A DNA stretch of 32,000 nt from positions 1,080,001 through 1,112,000 of the forward strand of contig NZ_CP011041.1 of NCBI RefSeq assembly GCF_002310835.1. Reading direction: 5' to 3'. This document shows, one piece after another, positions 1,428-26,516 of this stretch. Under the pieces are notes generated by a model. The model worked only from the letters and a program-made list of their open reading frames with translations. It was not told where the DNA came from and did not search any database. The position numbers and the translations under genes were made by a program. How positions within the stretch are numbered: the first letter of the stretch is position 1; each line of letters begins with the position of its first letter. The DNA is from Pseudoalteromonas tetraodonis (lineage in GTDB: Bacteria > Pseudomonadota > Gammaproteobacteria > Enterobacterales > Alteromonadaceae).

Positions 1428-4400
1428 ATGAAACTGATACTAAATAAAGCACTCATTTCTTTAATAGGAATAATGCTTAGCATGTCAGCAGGCGCTGAAG
1501 ATATAGAGCTGTATGTTAATCATAATGTACAAACCAATGAAAAGCCTCGCGTAATCATGATTTTTGATACATCGGGAAGTATGGCATGGGATGTAAATGA
1601 TGGTGATGCCTGTTATAAAAGAAGCGGTAATAGTTATTACGAGGTTGATTGCTTTGAAAGTAAAGACAGTTATAAACGAAATGAGCAATGTTATAAAAGA
1701 ACTAGTTACTACAATTATGAACCCACATGTAGTGATAGCCGCTTAAGAGTTGCGCAAAATGCTATCACCCAATTAGTGAACGATAACGATGATATTGAAT
1801 TTGGTTTAATGCGCTTTAATGGTAGTAATGGTGGGTATGTTTTAGCCAGAGTAGGGGCTGAAAAGTCATTTTTACTAAATAAAGTAGAAGAGTTACCTGC
1901 AAGTGGTTCAACTCCATTAACAGAAACACTCTGGGAAGCCTACCTGTATATCACGGGACAAAACGTATATTACGGGGGAAATACTAATGAACGAGATTTT
2001 ACAGCAGAGTCATCAGGGATATATAAATCACCCTTTGCGCCTGTTACTGGCGAGCCACTTAGGTGTGATAACAGTATTAATATTATTTTAATGACAGACG
2101 GCGATCCAACCAACGATTCAAATAGAAATAATGATATATACAACCTTCATAATAGTTATTTCTCTGGTAATCCGCCTGCTGTTAGTAACAGCTATTTGGC
2201 GGCGCTAGCAAAAATTATTCACGGTACAGATGATGTAAAAGTTGACTTGTATAGCAAAACTAAGAATGTACTTGACATAGGACGTGTATTTCCTATCGGT
2301 TTTGGTACGGGTATGAGTGACTCAGGTAAAAACTTACTTACTGAGACTGCAGATTACGGTGGTGGGCAATACTTACATGCGAATACAGCTGCGCAACTAT
2401 CTGATGCACTTAAAAATACGATTTCTCGTATTCGTGAAGTAAATGACAGTTTTTCATCGCCGTCAGTGGCGAGTAACAATGTAGATCAAACTCGAAGTCG
2501 TGATGCTATTTATTTTGCTATGTTTTATCCAGAAACCGGGGCGCGCTGGCGTGGTAACCTGAAAAAGTTAAAGGTATCGGGCAGCCAAATAGTCGATGCA
2601 ACCAACAAACAAGCCCTTAATAGTGACGGTTTAATTTCAAAAGAGGCAAAAACATTTTGGTTACCTGCGGGCCAACCCGCTGATGGTAACGCGGTTGCGC
2701 AGGGGGGGGTAAACCATTATTTAAGCACCATAGATCCACTTGCTCGTAATTTATTTACGGAGAATCAAGGCTCGATTATTAGTTTTGATACTTCGGCTGT
2801 TAGTGACATTCTCAGTGGCATTGTTAATAACCCGCTGACCTTATCCACTCAAGATGTTAATTGGGCAAGAGGAGTAGATGTTGATGATGAGGACAAAGAT
2901 GGCTCATCACAAGACCAACGCGCTGATATATTTGGTGATCCTTTGCATTCAAAACCAATTGCAATTGATTATGGTAATGATGATATTCGCATCCTCATAG
3001 GGACAAATGCTGGCTTCTTACATATGTTTAAAGATGCCGGTGAGACTGTAAGTGAAAGTTGGGCATTTATACCTTCAGCACTGTTTGACATTATTAAACC
3101 ACTTAGAAATAAACAAGCAGATAGTAAAGTATATGGTATGGATGGCCCTATCAGTGTCTACTTTAGTAATAAAAGCTTAAATAGTGAAGGTTTGAATGAC
3201 GGTATTATAGATGCTAGCAAAGGAGACGAGGTATGGGCTTTTGCTGGAATGCGCCGTGGTGGTAAAAACTACTATGGTTTAGATATTACAAATCCTAATC
3301 AGCCAAAACGTCTTTGGAGCAAACCAATTGAAGGGGGTAAAGGCGACTTTACTGAATTGGCACAAACGTGGTCAAAGCCACAAATAGCTTATATTAAAGC
3401 TTTTGGTAATAAGCCTTTGCTTGTGTTTGGCGCGGGTTACGATACAAATAAAGATGCGGCAATAAGAGCAGAGGACTCAAAAGGGCGTGGTATTTATATT
3501 GTTGAGGCAAAAACAGGCAGCTTAGTTTGGGCGTTAACCCCAGACAGTAATGGCTTTAAAGGTAAACACAGCATTGCTGCTGATTTAACTACGCTTGATT
3601 CAGATTATGATGGCTATATTGACAGAATATATGCTTCAGATACCGGTGGTAATATTTGGCGAATTGATATGCCTGGAGAAGATAGCAGTGAGTTTAGCCA
3701 TTTCAAACTTGCAGAGCTAGGTAGTAATCAAGATACTCAAGATAGACGCTTCTTTTATAAGCCATTGGTTGCGCGTACTTTGTTTAGTAAAGTAACAGAG
3801 ACCACGGTTAATGGTAATAAAGTGATTACTCGTTTAGATACTCCTTATGATGCAGTTGTTATTGGCAGCGGTAACCGTTCAAAACCAACGAATACAAACG
3901 AGCAAGATCAATTGTTTATGATCCGTGATGAGAATACTCTGACGCGTTCATTTAAAACTAATGCTCCTGCGCCAATTGTGCCTGCAGATTTAATGGTGAT
4001 GAATAGTGACCCCTTTGGTAATACTTTAGATGACTTAGATGGTTTCACCCTTGTTGAAGCTGAACTGGCGAAAAAGAAAGGGTGGCGTTATGAGCTAGCG
4101 AAAGGTGAAAAGTCATTAGCTGCAGCTACCGTTGTTGGTGGGGTTGCTTATTTTACCTCTTTCACGCCAGCATCTGATGAAGTTGTAGAGAATCAATGTT
4201 CTTTAAGTGGCGGTGGCGGCGCACTTTATGCTTTTCATTTGCATTACGGTACTAAAGTGTATGAACAACTAAAATTTGCAACCAGTTATGATGTGCCAGA
4301 TACACCACAGCTTTATTTTGGTGCGACTAATTCCTGTGCTGATTCTAACAATGATGGAAAATGTGATGATAATCCAGAGGAAGATGTTATCGAAGAGAGC

Positions 4401-4601
4401 CAGTTTTTTCTAATTGGTCCTGGGATCAAAGGGGAACAAGCTGAAAATCCACTTAAGCCAATAGAAATTACAGGACCTGGCTTAAAAGTGGTAGATGGTA
4501 AAATTAAGCTAGTGAATGATAAACAACCCATTGGCTTTGGTTTTAAAACGCAGCAAACATATATTTATAAGCGTGAAGAAAACGATGAGATCAACAATTA
4601 A
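1428..4601 (+). CDS. pilY1: type IV pilus tip adhesin/biogenesis factor PilY1 (vWA N-terminal domain plus PilC/PilY1 beta-propeller C-terminal domain)
   Basis: 1057 aa. SD AAGGGG 7 nt upstream; signal peptide ending SAGA. Complete MIDAS signature (DTSGSM, GSTPLTE, MTDGDP). C-terminal PilY1-type Ca loop DSDYDGYID followed by SDTGGNIWRIDM. Confidence 0.9.
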   Translation: MKLILNKALISLIGIMLSMSAGAEDIELYVNHNVQTNEKPRVIMIFDTSGSMAWDVNDGDACYKRSGNSYYEVDCFESKDSYKRNEQCYKRTSYYNYEPTCSDSRLRVAQNAITQLVNDNDDIEFGLMRFNGSNGGYVLARVGAEKSFLLNKVEELPASGSTPLTETLWEAYLYITGQNVYYGGNTNERDFTAESSGIYKSPFAPVTGEPLRCDNSINIILMTDGDPTNDSNRNNDIYNLHNSYFSGNPPAVSNSYLAALAKIIHGTDDVKVDLYSKTKNVLDIGRVFPIGFGTGMSDSGKNLLTETADYGGGQYLHANTAAQLSDALKNTISRIREVNDSFSSPSVASNNVDQTRSRDAIYFAMFYPETGARWRGNLKKLKVSGSQIVDATNKQALNSDGLISKEAKTFWLPAGQPADGNAVAQGGVNHYLSTIDPLARNLFTENQGSIISFDTSAVSDILSGIVNNPLTLSTQDVNWARGVDVDDEDKDGSSQDQRADIFGDPLHSKPIAIDYGNDDIRILIGTNAGFLHMFKDAGETVSESWAFIPSALFDIIKPLRNKQADSKVYGMDGPISVYFSNKSLNSEGLNDGIIDASKGDEVWAFAGMRRGGKNYYGLDITNPNQPKRLWSKPIEGGKGDFTELAQTWSKPQIAYIKAFGNKPLLVFGAGYDTNKDAAIRAEDSKGRGIYIVEAKTGSLVWALTPDSNGFKGKHSIAADLTTLDSDYDGYIDRIYASDTGGNIWRIDMPGEDSSEFSHFKLAELGSNQDTQDRRFFYKPLVARTLFSKVTETTVNGNKVITRLDTPYDAVVIGSGNRSKPTNTNEQDQLFMIRDENTLTRSFKTNAPAPIVPADLMVMNSDPFGNTLDDLDGFTLVEAELAKKKGWRYELAKGEKSLAAATVVGGVAYFTSFTPASDEVVENQCSLSGGGGALYAFHLHYGTKVYEQLKFATSYDVPDTPQLYFGATNSCADSNNDGKCDDNPEEDVIEESQFFLIGPGIKGEQAENPLKPIEITGPGLKVVDGKIKLVNDKQPIGFGFKTQQTYIYKREENDEINN

Positions 4602-4610
4602 GGGCTGTAT

Positions 4611-5030
4611 ATGAATAAGACACAACAAGGATTTACATTAATTGAGTTAATGATCACCGTTGCGATTGTTGGCATCATTGCCGCCATTGCAGTGCCTAAT
4701 TACAGTGAATATATAAAAAGGGCATCACGCGCAGAAGCCGCTTCTGCGCTTTTAGATGCGGCAAACAAGCAAGAGCAATACTTTGTGGATAACCGAGCAT
4801 ATTCAACTTCGTTTAGCGACTTAGGTATTCAAAGTAAAACTGAAAACGGTCATTTTGAGCTAACAATTAATGTGGTTAATAGCAATGAATTTACAATCAC
4901 TGCTAAACCCATTGCTGGTGCTGTGAAAGGGGATGCTGATTGCACGTCATTAACCATTAATGACGTTGGCTTAAAAGGAGCAACGGGTAGTAAAGGCAAT
5001 ACCGACATCAACTATTGCTGGGGTAGATAA
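4611..5030 (+). CDS. pilE: type IV pilin-like protein PilE (minor pilin)
   Basis: 139 aa with a class III signal peptide [31 protein letters not shown], Glu5, and a C-terminal Cys...Cys D-region. Lies directly after pilY1. Confidence 0.8.
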
Positions 5031-5036
5031 CATTAG

Positions 5037-5570
5037 TTATTTTTGGCATTTGTTAGTAGATTTTATTCGTATTCGCCCAGTTTGACTTATTGACAGAGCA
5101 AGCCCCTCAAGGCTTGCTTTTTCGTTATTTGGGCAATAGATAAAAGTACCGTTTTGAAAGCCGTTTAAAGAGCCATCGGGTCTAAAAGTGATGGCATCCC
5201 GAGGATACTCTAAGCTATCAGAGGGATGGATATGTTCAAAGGTACTAATAAGGCGCTCGTCATCATCTAAAGAGGTTGACTTGTCGTTATCAATAAAAAG
5301 TGACACCTGATTGTCCCAATCATCTTCTAAACACTCATTATTTTTCAAGGCACATAGAGTGACGTAGCTATTATTTTCTATTGCATAAAGACGTGCATAA
5401 TTAATGTTTCTGTGTAATAGATTAATCTGGTTATCTGCGCGATTGAGCGCCAAGAAATCAGGAAAAAACCATAATGAGAGTTGGCTTAGTATCGCTATAA
5501 CTGAAATGGTTACTAGTAATTCTAATAATGTAACGCCACCATTTTTGTGAGCACTTATAATTAACTTCAT
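5037..5570 (-). CDS. GspH/FimT-family type IV minor pseudopilin (FimT-like, C-terminal GRIR motif)
   Basis: 177 aa. Prepilin-type N-terminus KNGG/VTLLELLVTISVIAIL with Val at +1 and Glu5. GspH-like body; C-terminal TGRIRIKSTNKCQK. Confidence 0.7.
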   Translation of the reverse strand: MKLIISAHKNGGVTLLELLVTISVIAILSQLSLWFFPDFLALNRADNQINLLHRNINYARLYAIENNSYVTLCALKNNECLEDDWDNQVSLFIDNDKSTSLDDDERLISTFEHIHPSDSLEYPRDAITFRPDGSLNGFQNGTFIYCPNNEKASLEGLALSISQTGRIRIKSTNKCQK

Positions 5571-5648
5571 CCCTGAAGCCTTTCATTGAACAGTCCATTA
5601 TATTAGTTTAGTAAACAATCAAAAAAACGACAAAGTATGAAATGGCTT

Positions 5649-6194
5649 TTAACCACAGCTCTCTGTGGTATCCCCTAAATAAAAAGCGGTGCCTGATTGC
5701 GTTAATGTTAACGCTTTTTGGTTTTTGTTGTCGCCGTTAGGACAAAATATGAAGTTCCCAGGATTTGTAGTTATACGTCCGCTGGTATTAAATCGTATAC
5801 GGGTATCTGTAAATGAAACGCGATCATTAGGACTAATTTCCTCCATGACTCTGATCAAGCTATCTGTTTCATTATTATATTGGCCATTATTATTAGCATC
5901 TATAAAGGTAATAATTATTTGATCAACATCCCATTTACTTGAGCAAGTTAGGGTTTTATCATCACTTTTTACTTTTGTACCTGGAGCAGCGCACACAATT
6001 ACGATCTCATCGGTACTAGCCGCTTGTGAGCGTGCAAAGCTAATATTACGTTTAAGTTCTAATAAAAAATTTTCACCTCGGTTTTCTTCCAGCATATCGC
6101 TACTGTTCCACAACGCAATAGTGGCTATAATGCCAACAATGGCCACGGTGACCATTAACTCTAATAGGGTAAATCCACGGTGCTTAGTTTTCAT
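5649..6194 (-). CDS. GspH/FimU-family type IV minor pseudopilin
   Basis: I place the start at ATG 6194 ([27 protein letters not shown]), which gives a canonical prepilin leader. The 25 aa upstream in the track ORF (to 6269) have no support. GspH-like body. Confidence 0.7.
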   Translation of the reverse strand: MKTKHRGFTLLELMVTVAIVGIIATIALWNSSDMLEENRGENFLLELKRNISFARSQAASTDEIVIVCAAPGTKVKSDDKTLTCSSKWDVDQIIITFIDANNNGQYNNETDSLIRVMEEISPNDRVSFTDTRIRFNTSGRITTNPGNFIFCPNGDNKNQKALTLTQSGTAFYLGDTTESCG

Positions 6195-6247
6195 ATAAAT
6201 CTCATTAACTCGGTGATGTTTTAGTATAGTTATTTTTATTAAAATAA

Positions 6248-6691
<444 letters not shown>

Positions 6692-14050: not shown

Positions 14051-15649
14051 TTGGCTCGAGGAAACTTTTTTTTGACAACTTATAATTTAAAGAACACGCT
14101 CAACGCGCTATCTAATGCAAATAATCAACAGGCTATTAAAGGCATTATGCGCGGTATTGAGAGAGAATCATTAAGAATTAACCACGATGGTTCTATTTCT
14201 AAACAGGCTCATCCTCAAGGTGTGGGCTGTGCGCTCACCAATGGGCATATTACCACTGATTTTTCTGAGTCTTTACTTGAGTTCATTACACCGGTTAGCG
14301 AGTCATCAACGCAAACTTTGCAGCAGCTAAAAGATTTACAAAAGTTCACCCTAGAACATATGGGCGATGAATTGTTGTGGCCAATTAGTATGCCGTGCTT
14401 TATAAATCATCAAGACGATATTGTATTGGCACAATTTGGCGACTCTAATGTCGGTAAAATGAAAACCCTATATCGCGAAGGCTTGAAGAATCGTTACGGC
14501 AGTATGATGCAAGCGATTGCTGGCGTGCATTTCAATATTTCTTTTCCACAAACGCTATGGCAGTCACTGCACTCATTAAAGCAAAGTGACGCGAAACTTG
14601 AAGATTTTATATCGGATAGTTACTTGGCGTTAATTCGTAATTTTAAACGCGAACTGTGGTTAATTAGCTACATGTTTGGCGCATCACCGGCATTATGTAG
14701 CTCTTTTTTACAAGGGCGTAAAAGCGACTTACCGTTTAAAAAACTCGGTAAAGGCACTTTATATTTGGAAGTGGGTACCGCATTACGGTTAGGTAACTTA
14801 GGCTATACCAATAGCGCACAATCGTCATTACGAGTAATGTATAACTCATTAGATGAATATGTTGCAGGACTTAAAAAAGCCATAAATACGCCTTCAGATA
14901 TTTACGGCAGTATTGACGATTACACCAGTTCGACGCCAAAGCAATTAAATAAAAACATTTTGCAAATAGAGAACGAGTTTTACTCGCCAATTCGTCCTAA
15001 ACGTAATGCAAAAAATGGTGAAACGCCCACCGATGCATTGCTAAGAGCGGGTATAGAATATATTGAAATTCGTGCATTGGATGTTAACCCGTTTAGTGAA
15101 GTTGGGATTGACTTAGAGCAAATACACTTTTTAGATGTGTTTTTAACTTATTGTTTATTAAAAGATTCAGCGCCTATGGATTGGCAAGAGCAAACTCGTA
15201 GCACTGAAAATCTTGATACGGTGGTTAACCAAGGTCGAGAACAAGGCTTGATGCTTAATTTTAATAATGAGCAGCGCAGCCTAGAATCTTGGGGTGATGA
15301 AATATTTAGTCAGCTGAGTGATGTTGCTCAGTGGATGGATACTGCTTACGATGTTGACTACTACTCAAACACTATTAAGCGCATGGCGACTTGGATTCAT
15401 GATCCGGCATTAACGTATTCTGGTCGTTATGTTGAGCAGTTAAAAGCGTCAGGGTTAGATAATGGCCACTTTGCACTGTCACTTGCTCAGAAGTACAAAC
15501 AAAGCCATGAAACAGCAAGTTATACTGAATTTTCAAAATCGTGGCTAGAGCAACAAGCTGCAGAGTCGTACCAAGCCCAAAAGGCAATTGAACAAGCTGA
15601 TAAACAATCATTTACCGCATTTTTAGATACGTATTTCAGGGTCTGTTGA
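14051..15649 (+). CDS. gshA: glutamate-cysteine ligase GshA
   Basis: Collinear with E. coli GshA from LKGIMRGIERESLRI onward. No ATG lies upstream of the conserved N-terminus, so the start is TTG 14051 or, more likely, TTG 14072 (GAGGA SD at 14058-14062, 9 nt upstream). The stop TGA 15647-15649 lies inside the inverted repeat of the element below. Confidence 0.92.
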   Translation: MARGNFFLTTYNLKNTLNALSNANNQQAIKGIMRGIERESLRINHDGSISKQAHPQGVGCALTNGHITTDFSESLLEFITPVSESSTQTLQQLKDLQKFTLEHMGDELLWPISMPCFINHQDDIVLAQFGDSNVGKMKTLYREGLKNRYGSMMQAIAGVHFNISFPQTLWQSLHSLKQSDAKLEDFISDSYLALIRNFKRELWLISYMFGASPALCSSFLQGRKSDLPFKKLGKGTLYLEVGTALRLGNLGYTNSAQSSLRVMYNSLDEYVAGLKKAINTPSDIYGSIDDYTSSTPKQLNKNILQIENEFYSPIRPKRNAKNGETPTDALLRAGIEYIEIRALDVNPFSEVGIDLEQIHFLDVFLTYCLLKDSAPMDWQEQTRSTENLDTVVNQGREQGLMLNFNNEQRSLESWGDEIFSQLSDVAQWMDTAYDVDYYSNTIKRMATWIHDPALTYSGRYVEQLKASGLDNGHFALSLAQKYKQSHETASYTEFSKSWLEQQAAESYQAQKAIEQADKQSFTAFLDTYFRVC

Positions 15650-15902
15650 CCTTTGCGGATTACAATTTGTTCAAACTAGGAGCGGTTTAATCGCGGCGCG
15701 AGGTTTGTAACCTAGTGGGCTAAGTAAAAACCGAGCAACAAAGAGTAAATCGCTTCTAGGCAGAACCCGAAGGGCAGCACCTGTTTGGCATTGATGCTGC
15801 GTTATCGCCTATTTATGGGGAATAACCACACCACATAGGCTTTGCCTTGCCTAAATACCAAACAAACTGCTGCAAATGCAACCTTGAAAGGTCAACAGAC
15901 CC
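15639..15902. repeat. 264-bp MITE/ERIC-like structured element bounded by perfect 16-bp terminal inverted repeats
   Basis: GGGTCTGTTGACCTTT at 15639-15654 and its exact reverse complement AAAGGTCAACAGACCC at 15887-15902. The interior is visibly GC-richer than the flanks, has no ORF, and has several internal complementary segments. No clear target-site duplication. Confidence 0.5.
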
Positions 15903-15917
15903 AAGTAAGTAGCAGGC

Positions 15918-15990
15918 AAAAAAAACGCAGCTCATAGTAGCTGCGTAAATATTCTTTAGGGATGAAACAATGCTGTACTGCTGCATTCAT
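15918..15990 (-). ncRNA. candidate sigma-E-dependent MicA-like small RNA (~73 nt)
   Basis: Minus-strand sigma-E-type promoter (next feature). A non-coding ~73-nt stretch ends in the hairpin ACGCAGCT/AGCTGCGT (15925-15946) followed by U8. No minus-strand gene exists that this terminator could serve. Convergent with gshA, as MicA is in E. coli. Contains an UCAUCCCU anti-SD-like core and an A/U-rich stretch. The 5' end is estimated, not determined. Confidence 0.5.
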
Positions 15991-15994
15991 AGAT

Positions 15995-16021
15995 TCAGAC
16001 CCACACTTTTTTAAAAAGTTC
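15995..16021 (-). promoter_or_regulatory. sigma-E (RpoE)-type promoter GAACTT-N16-TCTGA
   Basis: On the minus strand: GAACTT (16021-16016), exactly 16 nt, then TCTGA (15999-15995). Same hexamer, spacing and pentamer as the E. coli degP and rpoH-P3 sigma-E promoters. Confidence 0.55.
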
Positions 16022-16037
16022 AGTGAGATCTTAAAAA

Positions 16038-16646
16038 ATGAAAAAAAATATTATTACCTTATCTTTGCTGCTCACTATAGCTGGGTGTGCAACAGCTCCC
16101 CCAAAGCAACCAGAAGATATTTGTAAAATTTTCGAAGAGAAATCTGACTGGTATTTTGATGCCAAAGACGCGCAGGAAAAGTGGGGCTCCCCAAAACATG
16201 TGTTAATGAGCATGATGTATCAAGAAAGTTCTTTTCGCCACGATGCAGCACCGCCTATGGAATACTTCTTATGGATAATCCCTACTGGTCGTGCAAGCGA
16301 TGCCTATGGCTATTCTCAAGCTAAAACGCCTACTTGGTCTGATTATATTCGTGAAACAGGTAACAGTGGCGCCGACAGAGACGAATTTGAAGATGCGATT
16401 GATTTTATGGCGTGGTTTGTTTATAAAACCCATAAAGTTAATGGTGTGTCTAAGTGGGACGCCTACGCACAGTATTTAAATTATCATGAGGGATGGGGCG
16501 GTTATAAACGAGGCACCTATCGTAAGAAAAAATGGCTAATGAGCGTTGCCAATAAAGTAAAACATCGGGCAAGCCGTTATGGCGCACAGCTAAGACGCTG
16601 CGAAGATGATTTAGATAAAGGTTGGTTAGAGCGATTGTTCTTTTAG
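16038..16646 (+). CDS. lipoprotein, putative lytic-transglycosylase-like (SLT-related) protein
   Basis: 202 aa with lipobox LLTIAGC. MMYQESSFRHDA resembles the catalytic-Glu region of SLT-type transglycosylases. The functional assignment is tentative. Confidence 0.6.
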   Translation: MKKNIITLSLLLTIAGCATAPPKQPEDICKIFEEKSDWYFDAKDAQEKWGSPKHVLMSMMYQESSFRHDAAPPMEYFLWIIPTGRASDAYGYSQAKTPTWSDYIRETGNSGADRDEFEDAIDFMAWFVYKTHKVNGVSKWDAYAQYLNYHEGWGGYKRGTYRKKKWLMSVANKVKHRASRYGAQLRRCEDDLDKGWLERLFF

Positions 16647-26347: not shown

Positions 26348-26393
26348 TTGGTTTTCCTCATTCCAAAAATGTCACTGTATTTAACAGCGTAAA

Positions 26394-26462
26394 CAAAAAA
26401 GCCTCCCAGTTGGGAGGCTTTACTATTCGATTGATTTTATCTCACAAACAGGGAAGCCTCTT
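26394..26462 (-). promoter_or_regulatory. pheA transcription attenuator (antiterminator/terminator alternative structures)
   Basis: Minus-strand terminator AAAGCCTCCC-AACT-GGGAGGCTTTTTT (26394-26421) lies ~45 nt upstream of pheA. Upstream GAGGCTT (26460-26454) can instead pair with AAGCCTC, the left arm of the terminator. Confidence 0.6.
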
Positions 26463-26516
26463 CTATATAAAGAAGCTAAAAAAAGATAAGAAAGTAAGTG
26501 AGTATTTTATATTCAT
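26463..26516 (-). CDS. pheL: pheA leader peptide (Phe-rich), MNIKYSLTFLSFFSFFI
   Basis: 17 codons plus TAG. 5 of the last 9 residues are Phe. Sits immediately upstream of the attenuator hairpins, an arrangement analogous to E. coli pheL. The SD (AAGGG) is rather close to the ATG. Confidence 0.6.
   Translation of the reverse strand: MNIKYSLTFLSFFSFFI

Follow-up and report, generated by a model that had tools for sequence, protein, structure and literature searches.

The small RNAs (sRNAs) MicA and RybB of E. coli and VrrA of Vibrio cholerae repress the mRNAs of envelope proteins by pairing with their translation-initiation regions (PMC4618604, PMC2628432). MicA (SraD; Rfam family RF00078), a sigma-E-dependent RNA that binds Hfq and whose gene is convergent with gshA, also acts in cis on the luxS mRNA (PMC2956633). 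A review of 2015 delimited MicA to the Enterobacteriaceae and tied it even to the gut lifestyle (PMC4618604), and this delimitation was repeated in 2025 (PMC12235514). VrrA, like MicV a sigma-E-dependent repressor of outer-membrane proteins in V. cholerae, measures 140 nucleotides (nt), is encoded between VC1741 and VC1743 and is not a MicA homologue according to its authors (PMC2628432). CT_532 of Bordetella pertussis, presented in 2025 as a 'MicA homolog', has ~60% identity to the last 46 nt of MicA only, without the pairing region; it is dependent on Hfq, apparently independent of RpoE and non-syntenic, and was described as a 'functional homolog' (PMC12235514). No paper in the searchable literature connects MicA with Alteromonadales or Pseudoalteromonas. 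Here we describe a predicted RNA gene in a stretch of 32,000 nt of the genome of Pseudoalteromonas tetraodonis (contig NZ_CP011041.1, positions 1,080,001 to 1,112,000), hereafter called the window and numbered from its first letter. A sequence-only reading of the same DNA had proposed a MicA orthologue or analogue at this place and had taken the MicA family to be annotated only in Enterobacterales, which agrees with the literature that could be searched. We consider it probable that the locus holds a stand-alone gene for a trans-acting RNA of ~71 nt, with a sigma-E-type promoter and a terminator that faces gshA, and that the RNA is a divergent MicA orthologue kept in several families of the Alteromonadales and in the Rheinheimera group.

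The predicted gene is composed of the following elements.

16013..16023, minus strand: sigma-E-type -35 element CTGAACTTTTT, core GAACTT at 16021-16016, matching the E. coli motif GGAACTTTT (PMC1312014)
15995..16002, minus strand: sigma-E-type -10 element GGGTCTGA, core TCTGA at 15999-15995, 16 nt past the -35
15988, minus strand: predicted transcription start, a G, 6 nt past the -10 and after ATCTAT, by analogy with E. coli micA
15918..15988, minus strand: predicted non-coding RNA of 71 nt, a divergent MicA-like sRNA, scoring 91.2 bits with covariance model R1 (nine Pseudoalteromonas RNA bodies, promoters left out)
15969..15987, minus strand: optional 5' hairpin, AAUGC (15987-15983) pairing with GCAUU (15973-15969)
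15954..15967, minus strand: conserved core UUUCAUCCCUAAAG, the presumed seed, single-stranded, with A at 15957 versus G in all other copies
15947..15953, minus strand: A/U-rich stretch AAUAUUU, directly 5' of the terminator
15918..15946, minus strand: intrinsic terminator, 8-bp stem ACGCAGCU/AGCUGCGU at 15946-15925, U-run ending at 15918

The promoter fits the E. coli sigma-E motif in its sequence, its 16-nt spacing, its A/T-rich upstream region and the discriminator of 5/6 nt that sigma-E prefers (PMC1312014). The promoter of E. coli micA itself reads GAACTC-N16-TCTGA and its start is laid out as TCTGA-gtatat-G, in which the G is +1; position 1 of the window RNA is put at 15988 by R1 as well as by a second covariance model, R2, which was made from 21 RNA bodies of the Alteromonadales type and holds no enterobacterial sequence. 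The minus-strand GAACTT and TCTGA, exactly 16 nt apart, are located where they had been reported, and the site GAACTT-N16-TCTGA occurs a single time in the whole 32 kb. Given that 0.02 exact occurrences are expected per shuffled window, and 0.42 when one mismatch is allowed, the motif alone is just mildly unusual. It rises beyond chance because a terminated non-coding stretch follows it and above all because it is conserved in other genomes.

The terminator stem encloses a loop of 6 nt (ACUAUG), and the U8 that had been noted behind the 8-bp stem is obtained when the closing T of the stem is counted. It had been argued that no protein gene of the minus strand could use this terminator, and indeed no real gene is found on that strand upstream of the RNA; the small minus-strand open reading frames (ORFs) there are antisense to SLT_4, the lytic-transglycosylase-like gene that diverges from the sRNA gene. 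Of the proposed transcript of ~73 nt the terminated non-coding stretch stands, whereas the predicted length becomes 71 nt (15988-15918) by analogy with E. coli. The 5' arms AAUGC and GCAUU are present as described, and the minimum free energy (MFE) fold of the single sequence favours a slightly different pairing at these arms. Judged by the established architecture of Hfq-dependent sRNAs, the AAUAUUU stretch and the U-tail would form a plausible Hfq-binding module, and an RNA of 71 nt in which an A/U-rich stretch precedes the terminator has the layout of MicA, which measures about 72 nt.

Among 80 gshA loci fetched from reference genomes, a promoter-RNA-terminator unit convergent with gshA was found in 34 genomes belonging to four families or groups. 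These comprise nine Pseudoalteromonas (the window included), Alteromonas alba, six Idiomarina or Aliidiomarina and eighteen Rheinheimera, Arsukibacterium, Alkalimonas and related metagenome-assembled genomes (MAGs), where Rheinheimera is filed under Chromatiales at NCBI. The unit reads, in order, cTGAACTTTTT, a free 16-nt spacer, TCTnA, a 6-nt discriminator and the RNA, which has a length of 59-87 nt and consists of a variable 5' part, a U-rich run plus CAUCCCUG(A/G)A, an A/U-rich stretch and the terminator. Information content is highest at the two promoter elements and about +1, and the 16-nt spacer has next to none. The -35 is the column block richest in information, with GAACTT in 33 of the 34 genome copies, and at spacing 16 the -10 is TCTAA, TCTGA, TCTTA or TCATA in 28 of them. 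A stable hairpin with a U-run is present in all 34, built from 30 different stem sequences, and in a model-based alignment of the Pseudoalteromonas type 97.4% of cells are paired and three pairs are changed on both sides. The 5' hairpin, in comparison, is found in most Pseudoalteromonas copies without covariation, is deleted in loci L007, L021 and L099, and the Rheinheimera-type copies have a different small 5' hairpin; on this hairpin the sequence-only reading is not supported. Apart from the two promoter elements, the start region and the core, only the capacity to form a terminator hairpin is conserved.

Metagenomes were scanned with a pattern made of the promoter plus TTTCATCCCTG only, in which neither the terminator nor the neighbours took part. 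A terminator and gshA, SLT_4 or yfjD-like neighbours accompanied 33 of the 37 matches, and the remaining four are bare chance matches, which brings the total to about 67 copies (34 from genomes and 33 from metagenomes). All 66 copies other than that of the window (33 genome, 33 metagenome) have CC[C/U]UG in the core, where the window reads CCCUAAAG. In the MFE folds of the window and of several relatives the core stays unpaired; in those of other relatives a weak hairpin includes it. With R1 the RNA body was recovered at the syntenic spot in Idiomarina (E 9.5e-6), Alteromonas (0.014) and Rheinheimera (about 0.02), with values ranging to about 0.3, and because each match is preceded by the promoter, the promoter and the RNA body support each other. 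In six loci of the Rheinheimera group (L017, L020, L023, L024, L025 and L026) SLT_4 is missing, and gshA and the yfjD-like gene are the immediate neighbours of the sRNA gene. Since it persists where SLT_4 was lost, the RNA is not merely a control element of SLT_4. The conserved unit is a real gene, and the comparison of gshA-downstream spacers that had been suggested for the proposed sRNA showed promoter, core and terminator to be conserved in related genomes.

The RNAs of the six loci that lack SLT_4 contain an extra segment of ~15 nt, UCUCCCUAUCCUUAG, which can form a small GGAU/AUCC hairpin. Two further matches to the models were set aside as ordinary terminators after genes: a second R1/R2 match in L017 at 1250-1316 and one in L079 at 5050-5112, both without the core.

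That there is no RNA gene at all appears very improbable; the hairpin would then simply terminate gshA bidirectionally, and the sigma-E-like motif would have arisen by chance or be left over from a promoter. The frequency expected for the motif with one mismatch would allow this, on the plus strand the hairpin can be read as a weak terminator too, and we found the expression of the RNA nowhere reported in the searchable literature; but the exact motif is hardly expected by chance, the hexamers, their spacing, the start region and the core are conserved across families while spacer and flanks vary, and an unbiased pattern brought up 33 metagenome copies complete in architecture and context. Hardly credible is the idea that the unit encodes a small protein. 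An ORF of 57 amino acids (aa; ATG at 15986 to 15813) is present in the ORF list of the window, and an ATG close to the 5' end is common among the copies. This ORF, however, runs through the terminator and, since its ATG is at +3 of the transcript, it has no Shine-Dalgarno sequence. The corresponding frame in the relatives stops after 2-61 codons, so that the 5'-ATG ORFs span 2-61 aa in different frames, nine of the 34 genome copies have no ATG, and the RNA tolerates one-base indels. With no frame conserved, the coding hypothesis was rejected.

The relation to MicA is supported by position as well as by sequence. The RNA gene occupies the genomic slot of MicA, between gshA and the next gene and convergent with gshA; as with MicA the next gene is divergent, and in most relatives the terminator abuts the gshA stop. 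It shares with MicA the sigma-E-type promoter, the 16-nt spacing, the 6-nt discriminator, a size of ~70 nt and the A/U-rich stretch followed by a terminator. In Budvicia the order is gshA-micA-luxS-yfjD-like and in the genomes studied here gshA-sRNA-SLT_4-yfjD-like. The direct neighbour is different (luxS in E. coli, SLT_4 here), and the hosts are marine and freshwater Alteromonadales and Rheinheimera. E. coli, I. zobellii and six Pseudoalteromonas copies from metagenomes agree letter for letter in the 14-nt block TCTGAGTATATGAA, which takes in the -10, the discriminator and the first bases. The core 11-mer UCAUCCCUGAA is equally far from the start in both systems, at nt 23-33 from +1 in E. 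coli MicA and in Pseudoalteromonas locus L001; its shuffle p is about 1e-3 for L001, L007, L048 and L023 and 0.02 for the window, which has one substitution, and is not significant for L014 and L022. Within the target-pairing 5' region of MicA (...GCAUUUGUUAUCAUCAUCCCUG) the 11-mer is identical in most relatives, and in Pseudoalteromonas it is preceded by GCAUU-GUU. The E. coli MicA string that the sequence-only reading had given is correct (locus L081, 1303-1375) and its likeness to the window is real.

Profile searches pointed in the same direction. A profile of promoter plus RNA made from the 34 copies had E. coli micA as its top match (E 9.8e-4) in 63 kb of enterobacterial and Orbales loci. 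Model R2 recovered the long Rheinheimera forms, which had not gone into it (E 1.7e-5 to 5e-4), and matched E. coli micA end to end at 1303-1378, the annotated gene being 1303-1375, with 22.2 bits (E 0.015 in 319 kb and 5.6e-4 in 12 kb); Budvicia micA was likewise matched end to end, at 5022-5094 with 15.1 bits. Taking these borderline scores together with position and synteny, we regard it as quite likely that the RNA is a MicA orthologue.

A considerable number of observations weigh against this reading. The Rfam MicA model, which had been suggested as a check, gave no match even at E<=10, neither for 15600-16100 of the window nor for I. zobellii (L048); at a gathering threshold of 41 bits the positive control E. 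coli scored 83.9 bits, and among 17 loci only Budvicia reached the gathering score, with 42.7 bits. Internal stem-loop 1 of MicA (CAUCCCUG...CAGAGAUG) is absent: the complementary 3' arm is missing from the window and from its relatives, which have variable 5' hairpins instead, and in the R2 alignment the 3' arm of the E. coli stem-loop appears as an insertion. Most of the 5' sequence by which MicA pairs with ompA is only partly similar and not conserved. With RNA-only profiles nhmmer did not find E. coli micA, and a promoter-only profile was not significant on its own against the enterobacterial loci. In R2 unrelated terminators reach 12-22 bits, and one spurious match ties E. coli at 22.2 bits; a generic terminator gives much of the score and the E-values of the model are rough, by which the homology to MicA is borderline. 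The distribution is patchy, as the element is absent at the locus in Shewanella and in Pseudidiomarina, where the gshA spacer is shorter than 100 bp. The window copy has intact promoter and terminator, and it departs from its relatives in a lineage-specific G-to-A at 15957 (minus strand), the most conserved position of the RNA, and in an unusual spacer of 268 nt towards gshA. Finally, no control sigma-E promoter was found elsewhere in the window, e.g. upstream of bamD, and the absence of reports on the expression of the RNA, already mentioned, belongs here as well. The earlier proposal is partly supported: the slot, the promoter block, the core and the R2 matches are in favour of MicA, and the Rfam model and the internal stem-loop are not.

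In five Shewanella loci (L029, L036, L040, L045 and L058, at about 5070-5650) a minus-strand ORF of roughly 150-170 codons fills the gap between gshA and SLT_4. Nothing recognisable was found downstream of gshA in Serratia microhaemolytica, a 'Klebsiella' MAG and Gilliamella. Rfam scans of the window RNA, at the gathering score and at E<=10, revealed no known family; the best sub-threshold match, the alphaproteobacterial mmgR/suhB family with 21 bits, was rejected as being merely a C-rich motif plus a terminator.

These same data bear on whether the RNA, although a genuine sigma-E-type sRNA, arose independently in the gshA spacer and converged on a short C-rich seed. The failure of the Rfam model and of the RNA-only profile (a hidden Markov model) and the missing internal stem-loop would be expected of such an analogue, and within the RNA body the resemblance to MicA is limited to about 11-20 nt. 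Moreover, sigma-E promoters resemble each other regardless of what they drive, so that the similarity of the promoter does not show common descent, and functional analogues without homology exist, for instance VrrA in Vibrio (PMC2628432). On the other hand, an independent origin in the same slot, with the same orientation and size, an identical 11-mer equally far from +1 and the same 14-nt block would be a strong coincidence, R2 aligns end to end with the micA genes of E. coli and Budvicia at their annotated coordinates, and the flanking synteny with the yfjD-like gene is common to Budvicia. On balance we consider independent origin rather unlikely. Somewhat less likely still is a main role in cis, by antisense action or transcriptional interference on SLT_4 and/or read-through from gshA. 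With 16 nt between the -35 and its start codon, SLT_4 must have a promoter or leader that overlaps the sRNA gene, and read-through from gshA is conceivable as no sigma-70-like promoter was found in 15400-16400; E. coli MicA sets a precedent with its action on luxS, and in Pseudoalteromonas fuliginea an RNA, sRNA0356, is antisense to the gshA 3' end. Yet the RNA is fully kept in the Rheinheimera genomes without SLT_4 and, in E. coli, beside another neighbour, and a purely cis-acting element needs no invariant short single-stranded core amid variable flanks. Roles in cis and in trans are not exclusive.

The RNA sRNA0356 deserves a separate remark. In the table of an RNA immunoprecipitation sequencing (RIP-seq) study of P. 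fuliginea (PMC11882849 supplement) the sRNA gene is not listed, and only sRNA0356 is found near it. In strain BSW20308 (L121, CP013138.1) sRNA0356 has 47 nt (1301592-1301546, minus strand) and lies antisense inside the gshA 3' end; by our estimate the sRNA gene would be located just beyond gshA, at about 1301650-1301780 on the minus strand. The RNA sRNA0356 was ruled out as the sRNA described here, as it is located about 60-100 nt past the expected terminator position, and at most it could be read-through from the sRNA promoter.

At the level of sequence the locus has the features of the class of sigma-E sRNAs (MicA, RybB, MicL, VrrA, MicV): a sigma-E consensus promoter, a short terminated non-coding unit and a conserved unpaired seed. 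The E. coli RNAs RybB and MicL have promoters of this class and likewise serve as repressing arm in the envelope stress response (PMC4618604), but differ in locus, sequence and seed, and neither was matched in the Rfam scans. With VrrA the RNA shares a sigma-E consensus promoter, termination and a non-enteric gammaproteobacterial host, and its presumed role would correspond to the lowering of envelope-protein synthesis by VrrA (PMC2628432); no Rfam family of the VrrA kind matched the window. CT_532 is comparable in being a small RNA outside the Enterobacteriaceae that was linked to MicA. The RNA described here, known from sequence only, shares promoter type, locus and core with MicA, unlike CT_532.

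The best-conserved segment of the RNA is short, C-rich and unpaired in several MFE folds, and for this reason it has the signature of a seed. Together with the layout of an Hfq-dependent sRNA it leads us to propose a sigma-E-induced, Hfq-assisted repressor, in which sigma-E dependence, Hfq binding, repression by base-pairing and the class of targets are inferred by analogy. Envelope stress would free sigma-E (RpoE), upon which the RNA would build up and be bound by Hfq via the A/U-rich stretch and the U-tail. The largely unpaired C-rich core (U-rich-CAUCCCUG(A/G)A) could then pair with G-rich translation-initiation regions of envelope-protein mRNAs, which would block ribosome binding and promote decay of the mRNA, and so lower the envelope load. 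Given its position, the RNA might in addition act in cis, like MicA on luxS, with transcripts of the divergent SLT_4 gene or read-through from gshA as targets.

One candidate target was found within the window itself.

5564..5578, minus strand: tentative target site in trans, CTTCAGGGATGAAGT, which covers the start codon (5570) of a FimT/GspH-like type IV minor pilin

The pilin ORF (5570->5037, minus strand) has CUUCAGGGAUGAAG across its start codon, a perfect 13-nt complement of the consensus core with one mismatch to the window's own variant. Besides the sRNA gene itself, this is the only complement of the consensus core in the window, where 0.06 are expected. The predicted duplex of -19.2 kcal/mol is the best of 33 start regions in the window, and the block TTCA[G/A]GGATGA is kept in eight Pseudoalteromonas lineages, without covariation. 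Nevertheless, the pilin start region is a weak lead as a target, because half of the eight lineages carry the A, which gives a C-A mismatch without compensation, because 7% of shuffled seeds perform equally well, and because the block equals CARGGAUG, the CsrA-binding core. Over the same eight lineages the Shine-Dalgarno sequence itself varies more than the spacer between it and the AUG (TTCA[G/A]GG). The pilin is part of a type IV pilus minor-pilin cluster at 1428-6269 with a PilY1-like gene (1057 aa), a pilin resembling ComP, the receptor of DNA uptake sequences (DUS), and two GspH/FimT-like pseudopilins.

The surroundings of the sRNA gene are as follows.

14051..15649, plus strand: gshA, glutamate-cysteine ligase (Pfam Glu_cys_ligase, E 3.8e-162), convergent with the sRNA as in E. 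coli gshA/micA
15650..15917, no strand: spacer from the gshA stop to the sRNA 3' end, 268 nt, specific to the window
16038..16646, plus strand: SLT_4 lytic-transglycosylase-like gene (Pfam PF19489, E 5.8e-79), divergent from the sRNA

The convergence with gshA stands as proposed, whereas a terminator at about 10 nt from the gshA stop does not apply to the window with its 268 nt; for E. coli micA, where ~10 bp had been stated, we found 8 nt. In the relatives a median of 15 nt separates the stop of gshA from the 3' end of the RNA, and in many genomes the U-tail of the RNA shares letters with the gshA stop codon. The spacer contains no repeat, has no similar sequence in the fetched related loci and matched no Rfam family; it folds with -81.8 kcal/mol, a modest z-score of -2.2, and could be an insertion or an unrecognised element. 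SLT_4, the ATG of which is located 16 nt beyond the -35 hexamer, sits where E. coli has luxS, and past it a yfjD-like CNNM gene lies on the minus strand. From its N-terminus MKKNIITLSLLLTIAGC alone, a lipobox-like signal, we read the SLT_4 product as a putative lipoprotein. If the 5' leader of SLT_4 exceeded about 50 nt, it would run antisense to the sRNA. Elsewhere in the window a phenylalanine leader (Rfam RF01859) was found at 26392-26514 on the minus strand. Its 58.1 bits exceed the gathering score, and it presumably corresponds to the attenuator of pheA.

Rapid turnover is usually assumed for base-pairing sRNAs. If the RNA is indeed MicA, the origin of the MicA arm of the envelope stress response moves much deeper, and an ancient RNA core can be separated from lineage-specific additions. 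In a tentative scenario, to which we give not quite an even chance, MicA would be far older than assumed and, as a sigma-E-controlled sRNA, would already have been placed behind gshA in the ancestor of Enterobacterales and Alteromonadales/Rheinheimera. Of this ancestral RNA only the core UCAUCCCUG(A/G)A would have been kept universally, stem-loop 1 and the 5' extension that pairs with ompA would be later additions, and the ancestral target mRNAs would have carried, at the start codon, sites resembling CAGGGAUGA; the FimT-like pilin is perhaps one of them. The finding extends a well-understood system and brings no new principle. It would give Pseudoalteromonas and related genera a first candidate for a sigma-E sRNA, from a family that is currently missed by Rfam, and the about 67 divergent copies would be material for comparative target prediction.

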